A DNA stretch of 62,117 nt, taken from the NCBI GenBank assembly GCA_013694695.1, contig JACDBX010000111.1:1-62117 (forward strand), given 5' to 3'. This stretch comes from Gemmatimonadales bacterium. GTDB lineage: Bacteria; Gemmatimonadota; Gemmatimonadetes; Gemmatimonadales; GWC2-71-9. A model generated the notes under the pieces. That model saw nothing but the letters and a program-made list of their open reading frames with translations, was not told where the DNA came from and searched no databases. Both the position numbers and the translations under genes were made by a program. Shown piece after piece: positions 21,700 to 47,425 of this stretch (position 1 is the stretch's first letter; each line of letters starts with the position of its first letter).

Positions 21700-22770
21700 A
21701 TGCGGGCGGTGACGCTGGTGGTGCGGGGTTTTCGGAACCTTGCCGACGCCGAGTTCGCCGTGCCCGAAGCTGGCGTGGCGTTGGTCGGTCCCAACGGCCA
21801 CGGCAAGACCAACCTGATCGAGGCGCTTGCGTACCCGGTGCTCCTGCGGTCGCTGCGCGGTGCGCGCGACCGGGACCTGGTTCGCTTCGGGGGCCCGGGC
21901 TTCCATGTCGGTCTCGATCGCGATCAGGGCCCCTCCATCCGGATCACGTACGTCGCGGAGGCGGCACGCAAGACGGTGCTGATCGACGGCGCCGAGCAGC
22001 GAACGATTACGGAAGCACTTGGGCATTGGCTGGCCGTCGCGTTCCTCCCGGCCGACATCTCGATCGTTCAGGGGGGTGCGCTGGAGCGCCGGAAATGGCT
22101 CGACAGGCTCCTTTCGCTGGCCGACCCTCATTATCTTTCGGGGTTGCTTCGGTACCGCGCGGCGCTCGCCCAGCGCAACGCCGCTCTCAGGGCTGGCGAT
22201 GCTGCAGCTGCTGCTGCGTTCGAGCCCGCGCTGGCGAGCTACGGTGCGGCGGTCACGGCCGCGCGGCTGGCTTGGGCGGAGGCCGCCGCATCTGGCTGGC
22301 AGGCCGAACTCGACGCCTTGGGTGAGACCGGAGAGGTGGGCCTGCGCTACCGCGGTGACGACGCGCTCATCGACCCCGCTGCGTGGCCCGATCGGCTCGC
22401 CGCCAGTCGGCGCCGTGACCTCCAGCAGGGGCAGACCCACGTCGGCCCGCAGCGCGACGACCTGGTGCTCACGCTCGACGGCCGAGCCCTCCGCGCCTAC
22501 GGCTCGACCGGGCAGCAACGTGCCGCCGCGATTGCGCTCCGGTTGCTGGAGCTCGAGACGATTCGCCGGGAACGCTCGGCCGAACCCGCCCTGCTGGTGG
22601 ACGATGTGTTTGCGGCGCTCGACGGAGACCGCCAGGCCAGGTTGGCGTGCCGACTGATGCGTGGCCAGGCACAACGGGTGGTGGCGGCGCCGCGGGCGGC
22701 GAGCCTCCCCACAGAGCTCGATCTCCCACGATGGTCTGTCGATCACGGCGTGGTGCGGGAGGACGGATGA
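21700..22770 (+). CDS. recF: DNA replication and repair protein RecF
   Basis: 356 aa from ATG 21700. FRNL...GPNGHGKTNLIEA Walker A, SMC-like signature GSTGQQRAAAIALRL, Walker B LLVDDV. Confidence 0.9.
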   Translation: MRAVTLVVRGFRNLADAEFAVPEAGVALVGPNGHGKTNLIEALAYPVLLRSLRGARDRDLVRFGGPGFHVGLDRDQGPSIRITYVAEAARKTVLIDGAEQRTITEALGHWLAVAFLPADISIVQGGALERRKWLDRLLSLADPHYLSGLLRYRAALAQRNAALRAGDAAAAAAFEPALASYGAAVTAARLAWAEAAASGWQAELDALGETGEVGLRYRGDDALIDPAAWPDRLAASRRRDLQQGQTHVGPQRDDLVLTLDGRALRAYGSTGQQRAAAIALRLLELETIRRERSAEPALLVDDVFAALDGDRQARLACRLMRGQAQRVVAAPRAASLPTELDLPRWSVDHGVVREDG

Positions 22771-35942: not shown

Positions 35943-36493
35943 GCCGCAGCCACCGCAGCGCTCCGACGGATGACGACAAAGCGCGTGGTGTTGTCGGCGA
36001 GGTCGGCGATGTCCTCCGCGAGCACCACGAGACCATACAGTTCGGCAGCTTCCGCCGACGCCACGGCAGCCCGCGTGAAATCCCGATCGGTGGCGATCGA
36101 TTGCGCTGCAGCGGCTGTGTCCACCACGTCTCGCGAGCTGATCCCACGTTGCGCGAGCCAACCGGCGCATTGCGCGAGCGCGGCAGGATGGCTCTCGGCG
36201 CTCCGGATCATGTCAGGCGTCGCACCCGGCAGCGCCACCAGGCAGAGCACCACCCGAAGCGCGACCAGATCGGCCACCACGACGCCGGACGTGTCCAGCG
36301 CCGCGTGGGCCGCGTCAATCGGTCCGATGCTGCTGTTCTCCACTGGCACCAAGCCGGCGTCGACCGCGCCGTCGCGCACCGCACGAACGACCGACTCGAA
36401 ATCCACCATCCCGACGAGGCCGGCCCCGGGTTGCCACGCCTGCGCGGCGAGGAAACTGAAGGCCCCCGGCACTCCTTGGTACGCGATCCGCAT
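35939..36493 (-). CDS. pheA: prephenate dehydratase catalytic (PDT) domain only, no ACT domain
   Basis: 184 aa from ATG 36493 (MRIAYQGVPGAFS...NTTRFVVI). It ends right after the PDT domain. Confidence 0.85.
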   Translation of the reverse strand: MRIAYQGVPGAFSFLAAQAWQPGAGLVGMVDFESVVRAVRDGAVDAGLVPVENSSIGPIDAAHAALDTSGVVVADLVALRVVLCLVALPGATPDMIRSAESHPAALAQCAGWLAQRGISSRDVVDTAAAAQSIATDRDFTRAAVASAEAAELYGLVVLAEDIADLADNTTRFVVIRRSAAVAAA

Positions 36494-36531
36494 CCCTGCT
36501 CCCTGGCGCCCGACGCGCCGGTGTGGAAATG

Positions 36532-36560
36532 AAAAAAGCCCCCTCGCGATTGGAGGGGGC
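36532..36560 (-). terminator. intrinsic terminator of the pheA-aroH leader (attenuator)
   Basis: The minus-strand RNA reads GCCCCCTC-CAATCGC-GAGGGGGC-UUUUUU. It ends 38 nt upstream of the pheA ATG. Confidence 0.72.
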
Positions 36561-36586
36561 CCGGGCAACTCGCTCGATCGTCTGCG

Positions 36587-36673
36587 CTATCGCATGCGTC
36601 GGTGCCCGGCCCCCTCAGTGAGGTAGGCCGCAAAGAAGAACGCAACGCGATAGGTGCTGGAGTGTGTCATCAT
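36587..36673 (-). CDS. Phe-rich leader peptide (MMTHSSTYRVAFFFAAYLTEGAGHRRMR)
   Basis: 28 codons with TTC-TTC-TTT at 36632-36640 and two Tyr codons. These are the last codons of the 117-aa track ORF. Alternative pairing segments overlap its 3' half. Confidence 0.6.
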   Translation of the reverse strand: MMTHSSTYRVAFFFAAYLTEGAGHRRMR

Positions 36674-36743
36674 CCTGCCGCACGTTACCTTCCGACCCAC
36701 GGGCGCGTCAAGGGGACCGCCGGCACGTTCATCGGGAGACAAC

Positions 36744-37049
36744 ATGCTTGACAGTGGTCCGCTGGCAGCGGTGGGTTGGCTGATATTCGTGCTGGGCCTG
36801 GGAATCATGGGTCTCGCCACGCTCTCCAAGGGTGCGCGGCTCAAGTCCCATGCGCGCCGGGCCGCGGATGCCCTCACCGGGTCGTCGCTGTGCCTTCTCG
36901 CCCTTGCACTGATCGTGACAGGCGCCGGACGCAACGTCACCTACGGCCTGCTCGGCGCCACCGTCCTCGCCATTTTTGCGAGCTGGTACATCGGGCGCCA
37001 TGCGCGCCAGATCGATCGTGCCACCAAGCGTGCGAAGGACAAGCGCTAG
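36744..37049 (+). CDS. hypothetical membrane protein (3 TM helices)
   Basis: 101 aa from ATG 36744, hydrophobic helices, basic C-terminus. No family recognised. Confidence 0.55.
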   Translation: MLDSGPLAAVGWLIFVLGLGIMGLATLSKGARLKSHARRAADALTGSSLCLLALALIVTGAGRNVTYGLLGATVLAIFASWYIGRHARQIDRATKRAKDKR

Positions 37050-37051
37050 GG

Positions 37052-38020
37052 TCAGATCTCCCAGTTTGACAACACCACGCCCTTCGACTGGTCGACCCCG
37101 GTGCCTGCGAGGGTGAGTCGGAGGTCGGTCCACTGCACCCGATACCCATCGGCGATCAGCGCCGCGTACAATTCGTGATGCGCTGTCTGGCAGCGCACCG
37201 TCAGGTGCCGGAGCGCCTGCGCCGCCGTCTCGCGCTCCAGCGCACCAACGACTTTGATGGCTGCGTCGAAATCGCGGGCAACCAGCTTCAGCAGTCGCAG
37301 TTCCTCGCGCGGACGACCCTGCACCAGTGGCACGGTGTGCCAGAGTCCGAAGCCGATCGCGCGCCCATCCGTGTCGCGAAGCACTGTCACGTCGCCCAGT
37401 CCGAGGCCAAGGGTCAGGTCCAGCTCCGCAGTGAAATCGACGCCAGCGCCGAGTTCACGGCTGAGGTGACCGCATTCACCGATCACCGCAGCGCGGCCCG
37501 GTTGGTCGAGCGCGCCAACTCGGGATGCATCGATCGCCAGCGCGCGTGGTCGGTCCCGCTGCAGGCTGACGGTGAGATGGCCGGGCAGGAAGCCGAGCCG
37601 TGAATAGAAGCCGATGTTGTCGATGGTGCGGGGCATCGTCTCCAGGCCAATGGTGCGTGCACCGTGCTGCTGCAGCCACTTCACCCCCGCCTCGACGATC
37701 TCCCGGCCGAGGCCCCCGCCCTGTCGATCGGTGCGCACGGCAAGCGGTCCCATCCACCCCTCGGTGCCGGCGAGGTGAACCATGTTGAATGCCACGACCT
37801 CGCCCCGGGCGTCGCGCCACACCATCGCGCCGTCCCCGGCATCGGCAATGGCGTAGCGCCAGATCGCCGGGTTCAGGTGGGGCACTCTCACGCCGCCGAG
37901 TCCGTCCTTGCGGTAGCGATCGGTGAACGCCTCCGAGAAGACCCGATTGAGTGCGTCCACATCGGCGTGGGTAGCGCGCTCCGGACCCGTCACTGCTCGA
38001 TCAGGCTGCCACATCGCCAT
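37052..38020 (-). CDS. GNAT family N-acetyltransferase (two-domain, Eis-like size)
   Basis: About 322 aa. Acetyl-CoA motif RQGGGLGREIVEAG. The start (ATG 38020 or 38014) overlaps the sbcC 3' end. Confidence 0.8.
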   Translation of the reverse strand: MAMWQPDRAVTGPERATHADVDALNRVFSEAFTDRYRKDGLGGVRVPHLNPAIWRYAIADAGDGAMVWRDARGEVVAFNMVHLAGTEGWMGPLAVRTDRQGGGLGREIVEAGVKWLQQHGARTIGLETMPRTIDNIGFYSRLGFLPGHLTVSLQRDRPRALAIDASRVGALDQPGRAAVIGECGHLSRELGAGVDFTAELDLTLGLGLGDVTVLRDTDGRAIGFGLWHTVPLVQGRPREELRLLKLVARDFDAAIKVVGALERETAAQALRHLTVRCQTAHHELYAALIADGYRVQWTDLRLTLAGTGVDQSKGVVLSNWEI

Positions 38021-40415
38021 GGTCCGGGGCCTCCTCGATCGCGGTGGTAACGGCGCGTGCGACATCATACGACATCCGGATCACCCGATCGAACACGTCC
38101 TGCATCCCTTCGACATGGGTGATGAGGATGACCTGGGGAAAACGGTCGGAGAGGCCGCGAAGGAGGTCGAGGACTCCAGCACGGCGCTCGTCGTCAAGCG
38201 AACCGAACACCTCGTCCAGCACCAGCAGGGACAGCGGGTGACCGGCGCGCTCGGCGATCATCTGGGAGATGGCGAGGCGCAGCGCCAGGTTGACGATGTC
38301 CTCCTCGCCGCCGGATATCACCGGCTTCGCCTCGCCGTCTTCCACGATGAGCGGGACGTAGTGTTCGTCAAGCTCGAGATCGGGGTAGCGACCCGCCGTG
38401 AGATCACTCAGGAGCGTCGAGGCATGCTCCTGAAGATCGGGACGCATCTGGAGCGTGAGCTCGGTGCGAAGGTCGCCGAAAGCGCGGTCGAGTTCGTGAT
38501 GGAGGTTGACCTGCGCGCCGAGGCGGAGTGCTGCCTCGGCCTTCGCCACGCGATCCGCGCGCCGGGCCAGGGCCGCACCGCGCAACCGCTCCGCGCCCTC
38601 GACATTTGCCGTGGAGCGGGCGAGTTCGACGCGCGTCGCAGCGAGTGCGGCCTCTCCTTCGCGCACCTGGCGCTCGATCGCCGCAAATGCTTCGGCGTTC
38701 CAATCGAGCGCAACAAGCCTCCCGTCGAGTGCAGCGAGTTCTGCCTCCACCTTGCTGGCCGTCACCTCGGCCGCCTCCGCCTCGGATGCGAGCGCCTGCG
38801 CCCGGGCAGCAAGTCCCACGGCTTGATCGCGCTCGAGACGCAGCGGCTCGAGCTGCGCGAGCTCGGTTCGAACCGCCTCGTGTCGCACCGCATCGTAGTT
38901 CGCCTCGGGACCGGTGAGCTGCGCCTCGAGCGCGCGAATCTCCTCGCCGAGCTCGCTGCGCTCAGCCTCCAGCGCGGTACGCTGCCGAAGCTGAGCCTGC
39001 GCCTGGCCCAGCGCCTCCGCGCGTCGGCGCAACTCGGTCTCGAGTTCCTCCCGCTCTGCGTCCAGCTGGCGCAGGTCCTCCGGCGTCGCCTTGAGCTGAT
39101 CGGCACGTTGACGGAGATAGGTGCCATCAACCTTCACCTCGTCGATCTGCCGGCCAAGGAGCTGGAGCAACGCCGTGAAGTCCTTGCCGAGCGGACGACC
39201 GCAGGTGGGACAGATGCCCTCCGGCCCACGCTCGTCGATGAGCGCGCGCTGTTCCTCCAGCTCGCGATATCGTTCGCGAAACGCCGCCAGCTTGGTGCGC
39301 ACCTCCTGATCGTCCTGGGTCCAGCGGGTGCGGCGCTCGGCACGCCTTCGCTCCAGTTCCTCGAAGACCACCCCCACTTCGGCGCGGCCCGCCGCGAGGG
39401 CGCCGACCTGCTCGTCGGTGGCCAGGAGCGAGATCTGCGGCTCCAGGTCCGCCAGCCGCTTTCGTACCTGGTCGCGGCGTGCCACCGCCCGGCTGTGCTG
39501 GGCATGCGCCGCAGCGGCCCGGTCGAGCGCGTCGCGTTCCGAAGCAAGTCCGTCCCACGAAACAAGCGCAGCAGCCAGTTCACTGATCCGGGACTGTGCA
39601 CGTGCGGCGGTGGCGAGTTCGCGGTCGATCGCCTGGAACGCACCCCGGGCGCGGGCAACCTTCCCCTCCACGATGCGCCGTTCGCCATCGAGTCCTTGCC
39701 ATGCAGTGCGTCGTTGCTGGGCAGTTGCCCACTGCGGTGCCTGCGTCGCCACCTCGGCAATCGCCGCTGCCTCCGCAGATTCCGCCGCCTCGCGGGCGTG
39801 ACGTGCGGCATCGAGCGCGGCCACGGCCGATGCCAGGTCGGCCTCGATCTGCACCGGGTCGGCGAGTCCCTGCTCGATCCCGGCGAGTTCGGCGCGAAGC
39901 TCGGAGCGTACCGCACGTACCCGGTCCTGTGCCTGTCGCAACCGCTCGTATCCCAGCACCCTGGACAGGAACTGCTGCCGCTCCATCGGAGTCATCGACG
40001 CCATCACCGCCAACTGCTTCTGCCCGGTGAAGTAGGTGTTGAAGAACTCGTCGCGCGACATCCCGAGCAACCCGGCGACACGTTCGGTGACGGCGTTGGT
40101 GCTGTTCGCGATCGAACGCCCGTCCTGGAAGAGCTCCGCCACAGTCATCGTGCGAACCAGTCGATACTGGTGCGGCCCAAGTGCAAACTCGAGCTCGACC
40201 TCGAAGCGCGCCCTGGTCGGGGCACCGCGACGGCGCATCGTCTCGCGGGTGCCCCTGGCCGCGGGCACACCGTAGAGGGCATACGCAATCGCCTCGAGCA
40301 CGGTGGTCTTTCCCGACCCGTTCGGACCCACGATGCCGGTGAGGCCGAGGCCGAACTCGAGCTCGGTGTACTCGTGCTGCCTGAAGTTGACGAGTTTCAG
40401 CCGGAGCAATTGCAT
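38001..40415 (-). CDS. sbcC: SbcC/Rad50-type SMC-like ATPase
   Basis: 804 aa. N-terminal Walker A GPNGSGKTT, long coiled coil with zinc hook CPTCGRPL, C-terminal signature and Walker B LLVLDEVF. Confidence 0.9.
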   Translation of the reverse strand: MQLLRLKLVNFRQHEYTELEFGLGLTGIVGPNGSGKTTVLEAIAYALYGVPAARGTRETMRRRGAPTRARFEVELEFALGPHQYRLVRTMTVAELFQDGRSIANSTNAVTERVAGLLGMSRDEFFNTYFTGQKQLAVMASMTPMERQQFLSRVLGYERLRQAQDRVRAVRSELRAELAGIEQGLADPVQIEADLASAVAALDAARHAREAAESAEAAAIAEVATQAPQWATAQQRRTAWQGLDGERRIVEGKVARARGAFQAIDRELATAARAQSRISELAAALVSWDGLASERDALDRAAAAHAQHSRAVARRDQVRKRLADLEPQISLLATDEQVGALAAGRAEVGVVFEELERRRAERRTRWTQDDQEVRTKLAAFRERYRELEEQRALIDERGPEGICPTCGRPLGKDFTALLQLLGRQIDEVKVDGTYLRQRADQLKATPEDLRQLDAEREELETELRRRAEALGQAQAQLRQRTALEAERSELGEEIRALEAQLTGPEANYDAVRHEAVRTELAQLEPLRLERDQAVGLAARAQALASEAEAAEVTASKVEAELAALDGRLVALDWNAEAFAAIERQVREGEAALAATRVELARSTANVEGAERLRGAALARRADRVAKAEAALRLGAQVNLHHELDRAFGDLRTELTLQMRPDLQEHASTLLSDLTAGRYPDLELDEHYVPLIVEDGEAKPVISGGEEDIVNLALRLAISQMIAERAGHPLSLLVLDEVFGSLDDERRAGVLDLLRGLSDRFPQVILITHVEGMQDVFDRVIRMSYDVARAVTTAIEEAPDHGDVAA

Positions 40416-41596
40416 CAGGACGCCTGGGTGTCCTGCTCGAGCGTCGTCATCAAGTCGGTGCCAACCCGGACGAAGGCCTCCCGATCAACCGACGCCGGCA
40501 ACGGACGCGCTGCGAGATGCGCGGCCACGATCTCGGGTAGCGTCTGTCGCGTGCCGGGTGCGCCGATCCCGACCACCCGGCCGGCTGCCTCGGGGCGACG
40601 AAGGTCAAGCTGAAAGTGCAGCGCACGCGCCTTCCAGTTGCGGATCTCGGCGTGATCGAGTTCGCGCGCCATGGTCCGCGGCACGTTGATCACCACCTGT
40701 CGCACCACGGCGTCGTCGATTGCACCGGGCACCGACTCGACCGCCTCCTCGAGCATCCGGTCGAGCTCGGCCGACGCGAAGTCGCCGGCGTCGATCGTCC
40801 GCAGGTCGATCACCCGTCGCGGTGGCTCGATGAAGTGCGGAGTCACGGTCCCGGACGCGAGATCGGCCAGCAACCAGCCCTTGCCGGGGATCGCCCGCTC
40901 CCGCTCCTCGCGCAACTCACCCCAGGGATTCGGGCTCACGTAGTCGAGGGCACCCGCGTACCAGATGCGCTCCCGCACCTGGTGCTGCACGTGGTAATGA
41001 CCGAGCGCGACATAACTCCAATCCCCGCCGGTCAGCTCCTCGGTGGAAAGGAATGCACCACCCGGCTCAGCGCCGCCCCGATCAGGCCCGAACAGTCCCG
41101 GGGTTTCCCCGTGCAGCACGAGTACCTGGTGCGGTGCCTGGCCCGCCGGCTCGAAGGCCAGCCGCGGCTCGCGGAACAGCGCCTGATGCGGCACGGCGAG
41201 AACGCTCAGGCCGCGCTCGGGGAAGTCGAGCCTCCGCGCGTCATCATGCACGACATGGATCCCGAGCTCGTGGAAGAGACCGAAGATCGACACCGTGTCG
41301 GTGGAGCGTGGAGTGTCATGGTTCCCTGCGATCGCGATCACCGGTACGCCGGGCAACCGGTCGACGAGGCGTGCCAACTGGCGGAAGGCAAAGAGGATTG
41401 CAGAGTTCGTGGGGCGGACGGAATGGAAGATGTCGCCCGCGACGATCACGACATCGGGCGCGCTCGCGATGACGCCGTCGATCGCGCGCCCGAAGGCCGT
41501 TGCCACGTCCGCCTCACGTTGGTTGAGCCCGCGCGACGTGAGCCGGGTGTACTGGCGGAACCCCAGGTGGGGGTCGGCGACATGTGCGATGCGCAT
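40415..41596 (-). CDS. sbcD: SbcD/Mre11-type nuclease
   Basis: 393 aa from ATG 41596. Calcineurin-like phosphoesterase motifs (HVADPHLG, AGDIFH, GNHD, LHG, GHYH). Its stop overlaps the sbcC ATG. Confidence 0.92.
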   Translation of the reverse strand: MRIAHVADPHLGFRQYTRLTSRGLNQREADVATAFGRAIDGVIASAPDVVIVAGDIFHSVRPTNSAILFAFRQLARLVDRLPGVPVIAIAGNHDTPRSTDTVSIFGLFHELGIHVVHDDARRLDFPERGLSVLAVPHQALFREPRLAFEPAGQAPHQVLVLHGETPGLFGPDRGGAEPGGAFLSTEELTGGDWSYVALGHYHVQHQVRERIWYAGALDYVSPNPWGELREERERAIPGKGWLLADLASGTVTPHFIEPPRRVIDLRTIDAGDFASAELDRMLEEAVESVPGAIDDAVVRQVVINVPRTMARELDHAEIRNWKARALHFQLDLRRPEAAGRVVGIGAPGTRQTLPEIVAAHLAARPLPASVDREAFVRVGTDLMTTLEQDTQAS

Positions 41597-41600
41597 CGCT

Positions 41601-43535
41601 TCAATATGGCGCGAAAGGATCGTCGTCGTCGCTTGCGAGTGGCGCGATGCCGCGCCGCGGCTCGGGTGATTCCGACGGGATTGTCCGCCGGACCCAGGCC
41701 CGGAAGAAGGCAAACGGGTCATCGGGTCGGCGCCGGACGGTTGCCGACAACGCCCGGCGCACCTCGGCCTCAGGCCGGCCATCGATCACGGCACGCACCT
41801 GGTCGGCGATGATGCCGGGCGTGAGGGCGCGGAGGCGCTGCACCACCGCTTCGGCGAACGGGAGGTCCGGCGACGGGGGAAAGCGCTCGACCCCCTCGCG
41901 ACCAGAGAGCGCCGCCGGTCGGGGAAACCGCACGAAGACCGGCTGCGTGAAGTGGGGATGGCGGAGCAGCAACTCACCCTTGGGCAGTGCGGCCAGCTTG
42001 GCCTTCACCGCCGGCGAAAGGGTAGAGTACGCCGGCAATGCCAGCTCATCAGTGTCCATCCGTCCATAGATGGTCGTGCCCGCATTGCCCGTCACCCGCC
42101 GGATCACCTGCGACCGGAACTGTTGCGCCGAAAAGAGGACCAGGCCGAGATATCGTCCACGCTCGGAGAGATCGAGCAGCATCTTGCGGACGTAGGTGTC
42201 GGGACCGTCGGCCGGCGCGTATTTGTTGAGCTCGTCGACGAACACCACCACATGATCAACGCCAAGATCGCGCCGCTCGAGGTGCTCACGGAGTCGTGAG
42301 ATGACCCGGGCAAAGACCAGGTCCTGGGCGAGCGGATCGACACCGGCGACGTCGATCACGGTGAGCGATCGATCGCGAAACGCCCCCCACGGCAGGTCAT
42401 TGGCCACGCCGTCATCGGTCACCAGCCCCTTTGATCGGGTAGCGATGTTTCCGAGTCGATTGCGGATCTTGCGGATCGTCGCAACGTGGTGAGTGCGCCA
42501 GACCTCACCTCCCCGGGAAGTCTCGAGGTGATCGAAGATCGCGCGGAAGAATTCCTCGAGGTCGGCGAAACTCAGGACCTCGAACGGCGCGCCTCGCAGC
42601 TCCAGCGCCTCGAACTGCCGTCCCACCACCCGCTCGGCGAGGAAGTCGATGAGCGCATCGGCCTTCGCGTCCACGTCGTCGCGGTTGAGCACCACCTCGG
42701 CGTAGTCAAGAATTTCGCGCAGGCCCCAGACGAGGGGCTGCACCGTGTCCGCGAGTGCGGCGTTGCTCCGCAGCGTGTTGAGGTTGACCCCGTCGGCCTT
42801 GAAGGGGGCGTAGAGCGTCATGTCGGGAAACGGAGCGGGTTCGAGCCCGAGCCGGCGCCACAGCGCGAGGTCTGCGTCGCCGAGTGGTGCAGGCTGGTCG
42901 AGAAAGCAGAGGTCGGGGCCCTTCACGTTGAAGCAGACCGCGGCAACGCTGCCCTTTTCTGCCGGGAACGTCTGGAAGATGCTGCTCAGCATGAACGTCA
43001 CCGCGCTCGTCTTCGTGGCGAGCCCCGACACCCCCGTGATGTTCAGGTGTGCTGCTTCGGGGCCCAGCAGGAAGTCGGCGTCGAGGAACACCGGCGCCGA
43101 CAGTCCGCCGGCGGCGTACACCCCGATCGGCAGACCCGTCGACTTGTCCGGTTGCATGTACGCATCCATCCGCAACGCGACGCGCACGTCGGCGTCGCTC
43201 GCCGCGGCCACGCCGCCAAACGGAACGGGCTGCAATGGTTCCTCGGGGAGCTGCCGGAGCACGGCCGCGGTCCAGAGCCGGATCTCCGGCCGCGAGGTCG
43301 GCGCGTCGTCCTCGCGACCCGGATCGCCATCCGCGCCGATCACCGCGTCGAGAGGGCGGGCGAGGTCGGAGTATGCAAACGCCTCGGTCACCACGCCATA
43401 CACCACGCGCTCGTCGCCGTCGACCCGGACGATCGACCCGATTCCCAACGGCGCGTGCGGCGCCGTCCAGAACGAGAACTGATGTGGTGTGCTCGGGCGC
43501 AATTCGGTCGCGACCACACGTCCGAGGAGTGTCAT
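41601..43535 (-). CDS. herA: HerA-like FtsK/HerA-superfamily ATPase (DUF87)
   Basis: 644 aa. N-terminal HAS-barrel-like region, P-loop NITGVSGLATKTS, Walker B VVVFVDELNKY. ATGA overlap with the nurA stop. It ends 4 nt before sbcD. Confidence 0.82.
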   Translation of the reverse strand: MTLLGRVVATELRPSTPHQFSFWTAPHAPLGIGSIVRVDGDERVVYGVVTEAFAYSDLARPLDAVIGADGDPGREDDAPTSRPEIRLWTAAVLRQLPEEPLQPVPFGGVAAASDADVRVALRMDAYMQPDKSTGLPIGVYAAGGLSAPVFLDADFLLGPEAAHLNITGVSGLATKTSAVTFMLSSIFQTFPAEKGSVAAVCFNVKGPDLCFLDQPAPLGDADLALWRRLGLEPAPFPDMTLYAPFKADGVNLNTLRSNAALADTVQPLVWGLREILDYAEVVLNRDDVDAKADALIDFLAERVVGRQFEALELRGAPFEVLSFADLEEFFRAIFDHLETSRGGEVWRTHHVATIRKIRNRLGNIATRSKGLVTDDGVANDLPWGAFRDRSLTVIDVAGVDPLAQDLVFARVISRLREHLERRDLGVDHVVVFVDELNKYAPADGPDTYVRKMLLDLSERGRYLGLVLFSAQQFRSQVIRRVTGNAGTTIYGRMDTDELALPAYSTLSPAVKAKLAALPKGELLLRHPHFTQPVFVRFPRPAALSGREGVERFPPSPDLPFAEAVVQRLRALTPGIIADQVRAVIDGRPEAEVRRALSATVRRRPDDPFAFFRAWVRRTIPSESPEPRRGIAPLASDDDDPFAPY

Positions 43536-44461
43536 GTCGCCGCGCCTCGGACGCGGAGGTAGCGATCCACGTCATGAATGCCATATAGCAGGCGGTCGCT
43601 GCGCGGCCCGGTTGCGAGCGGGGACCGTTCGGCGAGAAGCCGGCGGGAGAGCAGGTCGGCGCCACCGGCATCGGCGTTACCGGCAGCGACCTCGACCCGC
43701 ACCAGACCGTGGAAGAGATCGTGTCCCTCCCACGCGCGCAGTCGCAGTCCCCATGCGTGAAGCGGTGGGCGCCCACCGCCGCTGACAACGAAGACCGAGC
43801 TGCGATGGCCCGCTGGAATGGTGAGATACGTGTCCAGGTCCGTGCCCTCGAATGGCAGCGCACCGTGTGACTTCACCACACCCACCATGCGCCGGTCGGT
43901 GGCCCACTCGGGTGACACCGCGAGGGTCCCGTCGGCGATGAGCCAGTTGTCGCGGCCGGTGCGGTAGCTCCGTGACACCTCGACCTCCAGCGCGGCCCGG
44001 GCGCGGTCAATGGCCGCGTGCGCGCGGTCGAGGTCGTGCAGCGGATGGGGCGGGACGCTTGCGTCGAGGGCGATGCAGTCGTGCCCGGTGATCGTGGTCG
44101 CGAGCCGGTCGAGCACGTGCGGCCGCGCCACGACCACCCGCCTCGACAACTCCTCCCTGACCTGCAAGCGGCGGCCAGAACGCTCTCGAACGGCGGCCCG
44201 CACGACCGCCGCGACGAGCGGATCGGTGCCGACGTGACCGACCAGCTCCACGTGCTGCGAGCCGTCGAGGAACGCGACGTCGGAGTTCCACGCTTCGGGT
44301 TCACCGACGCACACGTGCCGCAACGGTGGCTCCAGCACGTCCGCGCTCCCGGTTTCGCGTCCCGGTCCGGCACGGGTGAGCTCGCCCCAGGGCGTCGTCG
44401 CGGGATTGGCGCCCGCGGCGGCCAGGTCGCGTCGCAGCCCGTCGAACGGTGAAGCGGGCAT
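43532..44461 (-). CDS. nurA: NurA-like 5'-3' nuclease
   Basis: 309 aa. NurA hallmarks AFLDGSQ, LIADGTL, GVVKSH. Confidence 0.78.
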   Translation of the reverse strand: MPASPFDGLRRDLAAAGANPATTPWGELTRAGPGRETGSADVLEPPLRHVCVGEPEAWNSDVAFLDGSQHVELVGHVGTDPLVAAVVRAAVRERSGRRLQVREELSRRVVVARPHVLDRLATTITGHDCIALDASVPPHPLHDLDRAHAAIDRARAALEVEVSRSYRTGRDNWLIADGTLAVSPEWATDRRMVGVVKSHGALPFEGTDLDTYLTIPAGHRSSVFVVSGGGRPPLHAWGLRLRAWEGHDLFHGLVRVEVAAGNADAGGADLLSRRLLAERSPLATGPRSDRLLYGIHDVDRYLRVRGAAT

Positions 44462-44465
44462 TGCT

Positions 44466-45680
44466 TCAGCCCTTTGTGTTCGGTTCGGCCAGCCGGGCGA
44501 TGAAGTGCATCAACCGGTCGGTTGCCGTCTCGAGTTCCCGATCAGAGACCGAGTACGAAAGACGTACCCACCGATCGTCGCCGAACGCCGAGCCGGGGAC
44601 GAGCGCCACACCCTCTTGCGCCATCAGCAGTTCGCAGAACTTCGCGCCGCCGATTTCGCGACCGGGCGCGATGCCATCGACGCGGAAGAAGAGGTAGAAG
44701 GCGCCGTGCGGTTCGACGAACTCGACGCCGGGCGCCTGGTCCTGGAATCGTGCGACGAGGTAATCACGGCGACGCCGGAAGGCCCCGACCATGCGTTCGA
44801 CATCGGCATCGACCTCCGGGCTCTCGAACGCAGCCGCAGCGGCCCACATCGCGGGATGGTTCGCACCCGTCGTGGTGTGCGTCTGCAGCGCAGCCATGGC
44901 CCGCCCGACTTCCAGAGGGGCATATGCCGCACCGATTCGCCACCCGGTCATGGCGTATGCCTTGGACGCGCCGTAGATCACGACGCTGCGTTCGAGGGCT
45001 GCGTCGTCGAGGTCGAACATCGAGGGGGCCGGCCCGGGGCCGTAATGGATCCTCCGGTAGATCTCGTCGCTGATCACCCACACGTCGTGCTCGGCCGCCC
45101 AGGCTGCGATGGCGCGCAACTCCGCAGTGGTGTAAACCGTGCCGGTGGGGTTGCACGGTGAGCAGAGGATGATCCCGCGCGTGCTGTCGTCGCGGTGCCG
45201 CTCGAGATCAGCCACGCTCACCTTGAGACCCCATTCTGCCGCACCGGGAACCATCACAGGCCGCGCGCGGCAGAGGTGCACGATCTGGGGGTAGGAAACC
45301 CACGCCGGAGAGGGTATCAGGACGGAGTTGCCCGGCCCGAAAAGGGTGAAGCACGCGTTGAACAGCGACTGTTTCGAACCGTTGCTGACCACGATTCGTT
45401 CGGCGTCCACGACCCGCCCGCCACTCATCCGGGACAACGCGCCCGCCATCGCGTTGCGGAGGGGGGCGATGCCCACATTCGGTGCGTAACGGGTGCAACC
45501 ACGCTGGATGGCATCGATGCCCGCCGCGCTGGCCACGGCAGGGGTGTCGAAATCCGGCTCGCCCACGCCGAGATCGAGGACATCCTCGCCGGCCGCCTTG
45601 CGGCGCTTCGCCTCGGTGCTGATGGCAACCGTCTCCGATGCCTTCAGGTGTTCGAGGTTGGGCGAGCGGCGGAAGGTCAT
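44466..45680 (-). CDS. pyridoxal-phosphate-dependent aminotransferase, class I (aspartate aminotransferase-like)
   Basis: 404 aa. GEPDFDTP, SNGSKQ, PCNPTG, PLP-lysine region YGASKAYAMTGWRIG. Confidence 0.93.
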   Translation of the reverse strand: MTFRRSPNLEHLKASETVAISTEAKRRKAAGEDVLDLGVGEPDFDTPAVASAAGIDAIQRGCTRYAPNVGIAPLRNAMAGALSRMSGGRVVDAERIVVSNGSKQSLFNACFTLFGPGNSVLIPSPAWVSYPQIVHLCRARPVMVPGAAEWGLKVSVADLERHRDDSTRGIILCSPCNPTGTVYTTAELRAIAAWAAEHDVWVISDEIYRRIHYGPGPAPSMFDLDDAALERSVVIYGASKAYAMTGWRIGAAYAPLEVGRAMAALQTHTTTGANHPAMWAAAAAFESPEVDADVERMVGAFRRRRDYLVARFQDQAPGVEFVEPHGAFYLFFRVDGIAPGREIGGAKFCELLMAQEGVALVPGSAFGDDRWVRLSYSVSDRELETATDRLMHFIARLAEPNTKG

Positions 45681-45824
45681 GGGACAGTTCCCGATGGAGT
45701 GGTCGAAGGTGACAAACCGTCAGCACCGGTGACGGCGTCCGGAAAGGTTTGCCGCTCGCATCGCTGAGTCAACGCCCAGTCGCGGGTGAAGGCACTCCGC
45801 GACACCGCACTGGGTTGGCTGCAG

Positions 45825-45867
45825 GCCGCGCGCGCGGCTACCTTGCGCGCCCCGCGGCGGTTTTTTT
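45825..45867 (+). terminator. intrinsic terminator-like GC hairpin plus T7 tract with no annotated upstream plus-strand gene
   Basis: GCCGCG(45825-45830)/CGCGGC(45853-45858) outer stem plus a 5-bp GCGC inner stem, followed by GG and TTTTTTT (45861-45867). It lies 26 nt upstream of the GTG at 45893. Confidence 0.6.
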
Positions 45868-45892
45868 CGTCGCCTTGACAATCGAGGGACCC

Positions 45893-47425
45893 GTGTCGGA
45901 ATTCGAGTCGTGGCAGATCACGCCGGCGGTGGCCGCCCGCCTGGACAATCTTGGATGGACACCGGCGTCGGTCGACGGAATCGACGCCCTGGTTCCCATC
46001 GTGCGCGGTACCAGCGTGGTGAGTGTCCTCCCACCGGTGCCCGCCACCGCTGCACCGATCGCGGCGGCGATCCTGAGCGGCCTGTCCTCGCGCGGCGGAC
46101 GAGTGCTGGTGCTCACCACGCCCGCACTGGTGGGTGAGTGGGGTGCCACGATGGCCGCAATCACCGCCGGAACGCCGTGGCGCATCGAGGCGGCGCGGGG
46201 GCCGGCACGTGCCGGCCGTCGGATCAAGGCTGACGAAGTCGATGTGGTGATTGCTGCCCCCGAAACGGCTCTTACCCTCCTGACACGCTCCGCGCTTGCC
46301 CCCGATGCCGTGACCACGATCGTCCTGGCGTGGCCCGAAGACTGGGACGCAGAGGAGGCGGTCACGGTCCTGCTGCAGGACCTGCCAAAGGACGCGCAAC
46401 GGGTCGTGATCACCGCGCGCCCGGAGCAGGCCGGCGCGCTGGTGGAGCGATACGCGCGGCGTGCTCTACTTTTCGGCGCGCCCTCTGCCGATCCCGCGGT
46501 GGGGTCCCCGGCCCTCCCCGCGCTTCGTGAATCGGCGCGCACTCTCGCGACGTCGTGGCCCGGGCGCGCCGCCGCAGTTGCCGAGCTGATCGACGCGACC
46601 GATCCCTCGGACGCCACGATCTGGACCGTGGACACTCGCGACCACGAACTCCTCCGGATTGCACTGGGTGGTGGTGCCGAGGGGGTGCGAATCGTGATGC
46701 GGGGCGCACCGCTTTCGGGCGTGGTGATCTGCTACGATCCGCCGGCGCGCGCAGACCTGCCCGCCTTCGCGTCCACCGACGACCTCACGATCCTGGTGCC
46801 GCCCGGCACCGAAGGCCATGTCGCCCGGATCGTCACCCGCCGACGCCCCGTCCAGGCAGCGACCAGCGCCGCCGCCCTTCTCACGCGCGACGCCGCGTTG
46901 CGCAGCGAGATCACGCGCGAACTCGCCGGTGGGACGCTCGACGCACCGCTGTACGCCCTGGGCCCGCTATTCGAGCGGCATGAGGCGCAGGCGATCGCGG
47001 CGGCGGTGTTCGCGCTTTGGCGGCGCGCCGTGGCGCCGGCAGCACCAAGTGCGAATGCTGCCGGTGCATCGGCGTCGACTCCCGTCGGCGGGATTGCAGC
47101 CACGAAGATCTGGGTGGGGGTCGGCAAGAAGGATGAGGCGACGGTAGGCGATCTTGTCGCCGTGATGGTGAAGGAGCTCGGCGTCGACCGCACCCTGATC
47201 GGGCGGATCGAGCTCCGGGACACCTTCGCGCTGGTCGAAGTGCCCGAGGCGGATGCGGAGCGGATCGCGGCCCGCCTGACGGGGCTCACGATCCGCCGCC
47301 GGAAGCTGGTGGCCAGGGTGGACCGGGGCCCCGGCGAGTCGCGCGGGGGTTCCGGGGCACCGCGAGGCGGGCCGCGTGGAGGGGGCAGCGGTGGCTTCCG
47401 TGCACCCCGGGCCGACCGCAGGTAG
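45893..47425 (+). CDS. DEAD-box helicase-like protein with degenerate catalytic motifs, C-terminal DbpA RNA-binding domain and RGG tail
   Basis: About 510 aa from GTG 45893 (GAGGGA upstream). The fold-level motif order is retained but the motifs are changed (see findings). The DbpA domain reads KIWVGVGKKDEATVGDLVAVMV...FALVEV. Confidence 0.75.
   Translation: MSEFESWQITPAVAARLDNLGWTPASVDGIDALVPIVRGTSVVSVLPPVPATAAPIAAAILSGLSSRGGRVLVLTTPALVGEWGATMAAITAGTPWRIEAARGPARAGRRIKADEVDVVIAAPETALTLLTRSALAPDAVTTIVLAWPEDWDAEEAVTVLLQDLPKDAQRVVITARPEQAGALVERYARRALLFGAPSADPAVGSPALPALRESARTLATSWPGRAAAVAELIDATDPSDATIWTVDTRDHELLRIALGGGAEGVRIVMRGAPLSGVVICYDPPARADLPAFASTDDLTILVPPGTEGHVARIVTRRRPVQAATSAAALLTRDAALRSEITRELAGGTLDAPLYALGPLFERHEAQAIAAAVFALWRRAVAPAAPSANAAGASASTPVGGIAATKIWVGVGKKDEATVGDLVAVMVKELGVDRTLIGRIELRDTFALVEVPEADAERIAARLTGLTIRRRKLVARVDRGPGESRGGSGAPRGGPRGGGSGGFRAPRADRR

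Follow-up and report, generated by a model that had tools for sequence, protein, structure and literature searches.

HerA–NurA together with Mre11–Rad50 is treated in the literature as an archaeal operon; bacterial cases may have been noted before, in Iyer 2004 or Constantinesco 2004. The window analysed here, i.e. the whole stretch of 62,117 nucleotides (nt) of contig JACDBX010000111.1 from a Gemmatimonadales bacterium (assembly GCA_013694695.1), carries genes of all four families together with an acetyltransferase gene of the GNAT family at positions 37052-44461 of the minus strand. This locus raises the question of whether such a set is a rare bacterial fusion and whether it serves double-strand-break resection or defence, the two alternatives offered by the original prediction. 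The four-gene set is best read as ordinary bacterial repair equipment, being neither a rare fusion nor a defence island. Each part is a member of a known family, and archaea already provide the logic of the four genes; in bacteria their linkage is common, though under-annotated. We consider it likely that the block is a chromosomal, vertically inherited housekeeping operon for the processing of double-strand-break ends.

The coordinates and tight packing of the five genes were confirmed as originally described, and a sixth coupled gene, encoding an aminotransferase, had been left out of the block. The features are as follows, with protein lengths in amino acids (aa).

45681-45867, minus strand: intergenic region upstream of the aminotransferase gene, the only non-coding interval preceding the six genes
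44466-45680, minus strand: class I/II (aspartate-type) aminotransferase, 404 aa
43532-44461, minus strand: nurA, 309 aa
41601-43535, minus strand: herA, 644 aa
40415-41596, minus strand: mre11/sbcD, 393 aa, start ATG at 41596
38001-40415, minus strand: rad50/sbcC, 804 aa
37052-38020, minus strand: tandem-GNAT gene, 322 aa (320 aa with the start at 38014)

The aminotransferase gene and nurA are separated by a 4-nt gap (TGA-AGCA-ATG), nurA and herA overlap by ATGA, herA and mre11 are again 4 nt apart (TGA-AGCG-ATG) and mre11 and rad50 share 1 nt within TGATG. The GNAT start lies within the 3' end of rad50, giving an overlap of 14–20 nt, and is preceded by GAGGAGG. Each open reading frame (ORF) of the block has hundreds of conserved homologues and hence none of them is a chance ORF.

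Identities of the five proteins

All of the motifs named in the original prediction for NurA, HerA and Rad50 were present, and its five gene assignments held: NurA and GNAT by fold, HerA by its match to the Deinococcus radiodurans protein (DrHerA), and Mre11 and Rad50 by domains and motifs. The NurA protein gave no match in Pfam (E <= 0.01), NCBIfam or PADLOC, and the Pfam NurA model PF09376 had no match in the whole genome carrying the window. As a control, PF09376 was run on 14 genomes and matched seven (Deinococcus, Thermotoga, Synechococcus and four archaeal genomes); the window protein is missed because its family has diverged beyond the reach of the current model. The sole sequence-level link was a phmmer match to TM1739 with E = 0.2. 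An AlphaFold2 model built on 32 homologues (predicted local distance difference test, pLDDT, 82.8; predicted template modelling score, pTM, 0.81) exhibited an RNase H-like/PIWI-like fold, and its four best Foldseek matches in the PDB were NurA proteins. These included D. radiodurans NurA (7f6d_G, 2e-11), Thermotoga maritima TM1739 (1zup, 2.6e-10) and Sulfolobus solfataricus NurA (2ygk, 6.8e-7), each with a probability of 1.00 and template modelling scores (TM-scores) of 0.45-0.66. The NurA-like protein TdpB (8wfd_G) ranked fifth, followed by PIWI and EndoV folds. Identity to D. radiodurans NurA (DrNurA) was ~16% over the structural alignment.

The NurA motifs are FLDGS (64-68), IADGT (175-179), VKSH (196) and YGIHD (293-297). 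Within the family (n = 32), G67, D177, G178 and H199 never vary, and conservation of D66 and H296 is at least 90%. Two acidic 'DG' motifs and a C-terminal histidine motif form the described NurA motif set (PMC13748450), and the two DG motifs of the window protein (D66-G67 and D177-G178) together with H296 fit this set. The modelled fold thus identifies the 309-aa protein as a divergent member of the NurA nuclease family, as had been predicted from the sequence; a toroidal dimer with Mn2+-dependent 5'-3' exo/endonuclease activity would be expected of it.

The sole PDB match of the HerA protein by phmmer was DrHerA (7f6d_B, 6.2e-41; query residues 15-276 and 364-550), and Sulfolobus HerA was not detected in this search. 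Walker A (GVSGLATKTS at 168) and Walker B (VFVDELN at 431) are invariant in 22 homologues. Residues 14-55 matched the HAS-barrel model PF09378 weakly, at 19.7 bits and under the 25.2-bit cut-off, and the N-terminus of DrHerA aligns from residue 15. By these alignments the 644-aa protein is a predicted HerA ATPase/translocase with a HAS-barrel-like N-terminus and a RecA-like core. A whole-genome search had placed an in-frame TGA within herA of dozens of relatives. Five cases were fetched and proved to be an alignment artefact with no recoding, the alignment overrunning a true stop that lies two codons earlier than the query end.

Mre11 contains a Metallophos domain (PF00149, 1.2e-13) and the five phosphoesterase motifs, i.e. 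DPHLG (8), GDIFH (54), GNHD (91), LHG (161) and GHYH (199). Its best NCBIfam scores were 76 bits for Mre11_Sulfo (cut-off 500), 70 for Mre11_Pyroc and 68.5 for TIGR00619 sbcd (cut-off 77.65), and its best PDB matches were archaeal Mre11 proteins. Rad50 exhibited the Pfam domains SMC_N, AAA_23 and SbcC_Walker_B and the motifs GPNGSGKT (30), GQKQ (131), SGGE (701), LVLDE (731) and ITH (765), with a CPTC zinc hook (402-405) at the exact centre of its 804 aa, within the coiled coil. The archaeal model PRK03918 reached 188 bits, whereas TIGR00618 sbcc reached 99 bits, and the best PDB matches were Rad50 of Methanocaldococcus jannaschii, Pyrococcus furiosus and T. maritima. Neither Mre11 nor Rad50 reached any curated NCBIfam equivalog cut-off, and by these scores Mre11 is a divergent lineage outside every named equivalog.

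The SbcCD pair of Escherichia coli and Bacillus subtilis likewise consists of an Mre11-family nuclease and a zinc-hook SMC-like ATPase encoded by overlapping genes. In contrast, the window pair scored weakly against the E. coli/Bacillus SbcCD equivalog models (32-48 bits versus cut-offs of 450-1420 bits), is linked to HerA–NurA and GNAT, and has a Rad50 shorter than E. coli SbcC, whose length of ~1050 aa agrees with the 1047 positions of the PRK10246 model. For both window proteins, archaeal models and structures gave better scores than proteobacterial or firmicute SbcCD did. Each is present in a single copy in the window genome, both in the block; the search for a second, separate sbcCD found none.

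The fifth protein matched Acetyltransf_1 (PF00583, 2e-11) over residues 58-144, with no Pfam match in its C-terminal half. It contains an acetyl-CoA motif (QGGGLG at 100) and a near-invariant C-terminus (SNWEI). Its AlphaFold2 model (pLDDT 93.4) had tandem GNATs as best Foldseek matches (3ddd, 3tt2, MAB_4324 7q3a, 2wpw, MshD 2c27 and Eis), confidently predicting a tandem-GNAT fold.

Conservation in Gemmatimonadota and linkage in other phyla

Conservation was examined in the best 80 loci of a species-representative genome scan, to which tblastn with the six window proteins was then applied. All were from Gemmatimonadota; 20 regions were also fetched, and ~100 loci of this phylum were covered in all. 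In the 80 loci, the order aminotransferase-nurA-herA-mre11-rad50-GNAT was kept almost wherever the contig permitted. All four repair genes were present in 54/80, most of the others ending at contig edges, and mre11 was downstream of herA in 56 of the 58 loci having >3 kb beyond herA, indicating that the linkage is conserved and not sporadic. Gaps of <=150 nt were distributed over the junctions as follows.

mre11-rad50: 68/68 loci, all <=38 nt
rad50-GNAT: 47/49 loci, typically overlapping
herA-mre11: 55/71 loci
nurA-herA: 51/65 loci

Median identities to the window proteins were highest, among the repair genes, for HerA.

HerA: 72.6%
Mre11: 57.5%
GNAT: 55.9%
NurA: 48.1%
Rad50: 47.0%
Aminotransferase: 72.5%

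A HerA orthologue was found in 289 of 401 Gemmatimonadota genomes, comprising nearly all members of families f1 and f2 (our labels) as well as those of f4 and f5 that were sampled. In the same 401 genomes it was absent from family f3, and f6-f8 gave only weak paralogue matches. The 20 fetched regions showed the cluster in f2, f4 and f5 also, and mre11-rad50 was kept in f3 and in HerA-less genomes of f1 and f2. GNAT follows rad50 in f1-f3 and is absent downstream of rad50 in f4 and f5; the tandem-GNAT gene is a lineage-specific fifth member, predicted to be translationally coupled to rad50. A clean loss of nurA was observed in 8/56 loci having both the aminotransferase gene and herA. The cluster is therefore old and vertically inherited, with a stable Mre11–Rad50 core and a dispensable NurA/HerA half.

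Several loci carry additional genes. In ~10, a GlpD-like flavin adenine dinucleotide oxidoreductase (DAO and DAO_C domains) lies between nurA and herA (e.g. L032:7918-9975, plus strand), and in several others a ClC chloride channel with CBS domains, encoded in the opposite direction, separates herA from mre11 (e.g. L059:11944-13860, minus strand). These inserts were considered as mobile or defence genes and rejected, being unrelated housekeeping genes. Many Gemmatimonadales have a ~167-aa ORF with no Pfam match in a ~530-nt gap between the aminotransferase gene and nurA (e.g. L009:8557-9060 and L063:9352-9960, both plus strand). It lies directly before herA where nurA is deleted; at this position the window has no such ORF, only the 4-nt gap. 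The ORF may encode another accessory or regulatory component of the cluster.

Outside the phylum, a plasmid collection was searched, and a mixed HerA profile was then used with three contig look-ups. The plasmid collection contained six HerA relatives, all distant (<=32% identity), of which five were examined; phage records gave two HerA matches, both distant. In 8/8 contexts examined, from chromosomes and plasmids of Actinomycetota, Cyanobacteriota and Chloroflexota, a HerA-like gene was directly beside sbcD-sbcC, which leaves unsupported the unusual character that had been ascribed to the 'bacterial fusion'. The five plasmid-collection loci were from Chlorohelix (Chloroflexota), Sphaerospermopsis and Aulosira (Cyanobacteriota), a Streptomyces linear plasmid and Nonomuraea, the last an 11.85 Mb record that is evidently a chromosome; in each of them sbcD and sbcC come immediately after the HerA-like gene. 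The order on the Calothrix PCC 7507 chromosome was nurA-like/herA/sbcD/sbcC, and the Streptomyces and Thermomonospora chromosomes carried herA/sbcD/sbcC with a 325-335-aa gene. A neighbour gene of 325-353 aa was present in seven of the eight contexts. These neighbours were assessed by hhalign probability against the Gemmatimonad NurA profile and by a PF09376 search.

Thermomonospora, 325 aa: hhalign 97%; PF09376 just under the cut-off
Streptomyces plasmid, 344 aa: hhalign 95.7%; no Pfam match
Chlorohelix, 331 aa: hhalign 92.5%; no Pfam match
Calothrix, 343 aa: hhalign 76%; PF09376 just under the cut-off
Sphaerospermopsis, 346 aa: hhalign 47%; PF09376 just under the cut-off

The Pfam search gave no match for the 352-aa neighbour in Aulosira, the 335-aa neighbour on the Streptomyces chromosome or the 353-aa ORF after rad50 in Nonomuraea. 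The profile comparisons support a NurA identity for the Thermomonospora, Streptomyces plasmid and Chlorohelix neighbours and weakly suggest one for those of Calothrix and Sphaerospermopsis, so that five of six tested neighbours are NurA-like. HerA/SbcCD linkage is thus found in at least four bacterial phyla and in two gene orders, with a NurA-like gene in most tested cases. This linkage is at odds with what a review of 2026 states (PMC13748450). Whether the arrangement would prove common and already annotated had been raised at the outset; it is common, but public records name these genes only 'hypothetical protein' and 'ATP-binding protein'.

The actinobacterial, cyanobacterial and chloroflexotal clusters differ from that of the window. 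Their HerA is 24-31% identical to the window HerA, their SbcC is longer (~1000-1100 aa in most) and GNAT is lacking. Several are located on plasmids or on the arms of chromosomes, in some cases accompanied by sigma-factor and ImmA/IrrE genes. On the Chlorohelix plasmid (L110:3838-6907), an ImmA/IrrE metallopeptidase gene, accompanied by a sigma-70-family factor, precedes the module in the same orientation. On the Streptomyces plasmid (L113:4745-5917), the ImmA/IrrE gene is divergent and adjoins a Wadjet-like TIGR02680/TIGR02678/DUF2397 cluster. The plasmid-borne HerA-SbcCD copies had no PADLOC system match. Their setting suggests that they represent a mobile variant which regulates itself and differs from the chromosomal version of Gemmatimonads.

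Probable role in end processing and the competing explanations

Among the closest known arrangements is the herA-mre11-rad50-nurA operon of thermophilic archaea (Sulfolobus/Saccharolobus, Pyrococcus and Thermococcus), which has the same four families, co-directional and tightly packed. The expected division of labour is also alike, with Mre11–Rad50 predicted to recognise and clip ends and HerA–NurA to perform processive 5' resection. The window order is nurA-herA-mre11-rad50, whereas the archaeal-type order recurs in actinobacterial versions. Unlike the archaeal operon, the window block has HerA and NurA of a bacterial (Deinococcus-like) type, an additional tandem-GNAT gene and a mesophilic soil bacterial host, and its HerA–NurA pair can be dispensed with in many relatives. 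Among solved structures, those of D. radiodurans NurA–HerA (PDB 7F6D, 7WRW and 7WRX; PMC9960219) are the nearest to both proteins. The nurA-herA operon order is shared with Deinococcus and with Thermus thermophilus NurA/HepA, and the Deinococcus host likewise has RecJ and no detectable RecB/AddAB-type nuclease. We take the Deinococcus sbcCD genes to lie elsewhere on the chromosome than nurA-herA, unlike the window, where both pairs are contiguous. Any sbcCD link to D. radiodurans HerA–NurA is left open in PMC4663267.

A mechanism for the window proteins was drawn by homology with the archaeal and Deinococcus proteins. A Mre11 dimer with Rad50, through its zinc-hook coiled coil, would find, tether and clip DNA ends. 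A HerA hexamer would dock a NurA dimer via its HAS-barrel face and, with ATP, feed duplex DNA to NurA, which would degrade the 5' strand; the resulting 3' tail would be passed to RecA. ATP-driven 5' resection by HerA–NurA is described for the Deinococcus complex (PMC9960219) and for archaeal systems (PMC3326311). RecJ, LexA and RecA are present in the window genome. No PF12705 domain (PDDEXK_1, the nuclease domain of RecB, AddA, AddB and AdnAB) was detected in this genome, and the D. radiodurans control genome was likewise without a PF12705 match. As no RecB/AddAB/AdnAB-type nuclease domain is detectable, HerA–NurA and RecJ are the candidate 5'-3' resection activities. The GNAT might, as a guess, acetylate a component or partner of the Mre11–Rad50 complex.

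Several observations weigh against a housekeeping end-processing operon. A 94%-complete metagenome-assembled genome cannot prove the absence of AddAB, and PF12705 proteins are carried by 24/61 high-quality genomes of the order, so that the absence of RecB/AddAB-type nucleases is lineage-specific and not absolute. Three genomes of the same genus lack nurA alone and retain herA. Both nurA and herA are missing from f3 and from scattered f1/f2 genomes that keep mre11-rad50-GNAT, indicating that HerA–NurA is dispensable and may not need Mre11–Rad50. The cluster is not obligatorily operonic, with unrelated genes inserted in ~15% of loci. Loss of nurA/herA reportedly raised resistance to ultraviolet light, to judge by the title of Fujii 2018.

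These losses and insertions lend themselves to another explanation, in which the adjacency is inherited synteny, Mre11–Rad50(–GNAT) forming one unit and HerA(–NurA) another with other partners such as RecJ, and the packing reflects genome compaction. Consistent with this, mre11-rad50-GNAT persists where nurA or nurA and herA have repeatedly been lost, the inserts fall at nurA|herA and herA|mre11 and never within mre11|rad50, and HerA, far better conserved than NurA, is retained without it. D. radiodurans HerA also binds RecJ (PMC4663267), which the window genome encodes. However, unless the genes are functionally linked, HerA|SbcD adjacency in four phyla and in two gene orders is difficult to account for, and archaeal HerA physically interacts with Mre11 according to PMC2288612; we regard two independent units as unlikely. 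The main task of HerA might also be to pump DNA during chromosome segregation or division, or to regulate other nucleases, with NurA as an optional accessory. HerA is as conserved as the aminotransferase and far above Rad50 and NurA, and it is kept after clean deletion of nurA in the 8/56 loci and in three whole genomes. Segregation or pumping was an idea of Iyer 2004, as quoted in PMC4663267. Yet HerA is lost in f3 and scattered genomes and so is not essential, and its invariable neighbours are DNA-end enzymes, which leaves such a role as highly improbable, the least probable of those considered.

A defence module against phages or plasmids, the second alternative of the original prediction, would use Mre11–Rad50 as a sensor of the free ends of invading linear DNA and HerA–NurA for its destruction. 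SIR2-HerA and DUF4297-HerA are established defence systems that likewise combine a HerA-family hexameric ATPase with an effector, as does TdpAB, a solved HerA-like/NurA-like complex that we take to be a defence system and whose TdpB is the fifth-best, NurA-like fold match mentioned above. The distant four-gene sets on plasmids, one by the Wadjet-like cluster and ImmA/IrrE and one behind sigma-factor and ImmA/IrrE genes, point the same way, and bacterial NurA–HerA mainly degrade foreign DNA according to the 2026 review (PMC13748450). Unlike the HerA anti-phage systems, the window locus has no SIR2 or DUF4297 partner and occupies a core syntenic chromosomal site. The same housekeeping genes flank it in almost all sampled f1 and f2 genomes, the opposite of the patchy islands typical of defence genes. 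No integrase, transposase or other defence gene lies alongside, the block holds the sole Mre11/Rad50 of the window genome, and no compositional anomaly was detected. With PADLOC-DB v2, NurA and GNAT gave no match and no specific HerA model matched the window HerA, the only matches being generic ATPase-head ones (mad3, LmuB, PbeC and mad8) and none being to a system-specific model. The plasmid and phage collections contain only distant HerA relatives (<=32% identity). Defence is thus unsupported at this locus by synteny, G+C content and the sole Mre11/Rad50 copies, and we consider it very unlikely; of the two original alternatives, housekeeping processing of double-strand-break ends is favoured.

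Starting from a housekeeping end-processing operon, a wider proposal can be formulated. In Gemmatimonadales without AddAB/RecBCD, Mre11–Rad50, HerA and NurA would form one physically coupled machine for the main long-range resection, with the rad50-coupled GNAT as a dedicated regulator that acetylates Rad50/Mre11, HerA or a DNA-end-binding partner, and bacteria in general would have a third resection pathway in (NurA)-HerA-SbcCD. We hold this proposal to be doubtful. Such a pathway would have been missed because the tested Pfam and NCBIfam models fail on these NurA and HerA lineages; for the same reason, and because the records name neither protein, the system would escape surveys of bacterial recombination pathways that rely on genomes. 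A whole bacterial order keeps an archaeal-type synteny (~100 loci), with which the small sample from three further phyla agrees. For work in a cultivable relative such as Gemmatimonas, natural experiments are offered by lineages without nurA, without nurA and herA, with or without AddAB-like genes, and with a rad50-coupled acetyltransferase. The present result is an advance in annotation and distribution and not in mechanism, the proposed function being read from sequence.

Patterns of the PF12705 proteins were noted across the order. They often occur as two ORFs ~3 kb apart, both of ~1000-1200 aa and both ending in a PDDEXK_1 domain at the C-terminus (e.g. in genomes G096, G046, G116, G059, G038, G131, G144, G044, G039 and others), and by this architecture look like AddAB/AdnAB. 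The pairs are patchy in the order, absent from the genus of the window and enriched in f3, which is without HerA–NurA. Strict complementarity between HerA–NurA and AddAB-like genes was considered and rejected, as many genomes carry both.

Transcription signals, gene starts and flanking genes

The region 45681-45867 is likely, by its position, to be the promoter region of the six-gene block. A sigma-70 consensus scan of 36400-46000 found no promoter. The same interval contained six terminator-like sites against 3.9 +/- 2.0 in shuffled sequences, which is not above expectation, and the single strong terminator-like site (36536-36562) was outside the block. The aminotransferase (PF00155, 1.7e-64; asp_aminotase_Arch, 1.7e-98) is probably co-transcribed with the repair genes in the window genome and is a syntenic neighbour, not a repair component.

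For two genes, upstream starts in a mechanically produced ORF list were rejected, as homology favoured shorter ones: ATG 41782 for sbcD and 38068 for GNAT. The GNAT start may be ATG 38020, 9 nt past GAGGAGG, or ATG 38014, which yields the 'MW...' N-terminus kept in relatives.

The genome carrying the window is 2.8 Mb and 94% complete, and the window corresponds to its contig C70. G+C content is ~67% throughout the window with no compositional step at the locus, and the nearest protein relatives of the block are from Gemmatimonadales or Gemmatimonadota. Amino-acid biosynthesis genes lie on either side (the aminotransferase gene and the pheA region). A plus-strand ORF of 131 aa (36654-37049) runs towards the GNAT gene, only 3 nt separating the two stops, and exhibited weak membrane-protein-like Pfam matches only (LapA_dom, E = 0.002).

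Comparison of the regions upstream of lexA, recA, the aminotransferase gene and nurA found no shared operator before the operon. Three direct TTCGGGT repeats were observed upstream of lexA (contig C10, ~22440-22520), and TTCGG-containing repeats upstream of recA (contig C12, ~2100-2160), with CTTCGGAGT and ATTCGGTTGT nearby. These lexA and recA upstream repeats may represent the LexA operator of Gemmatimonadota.

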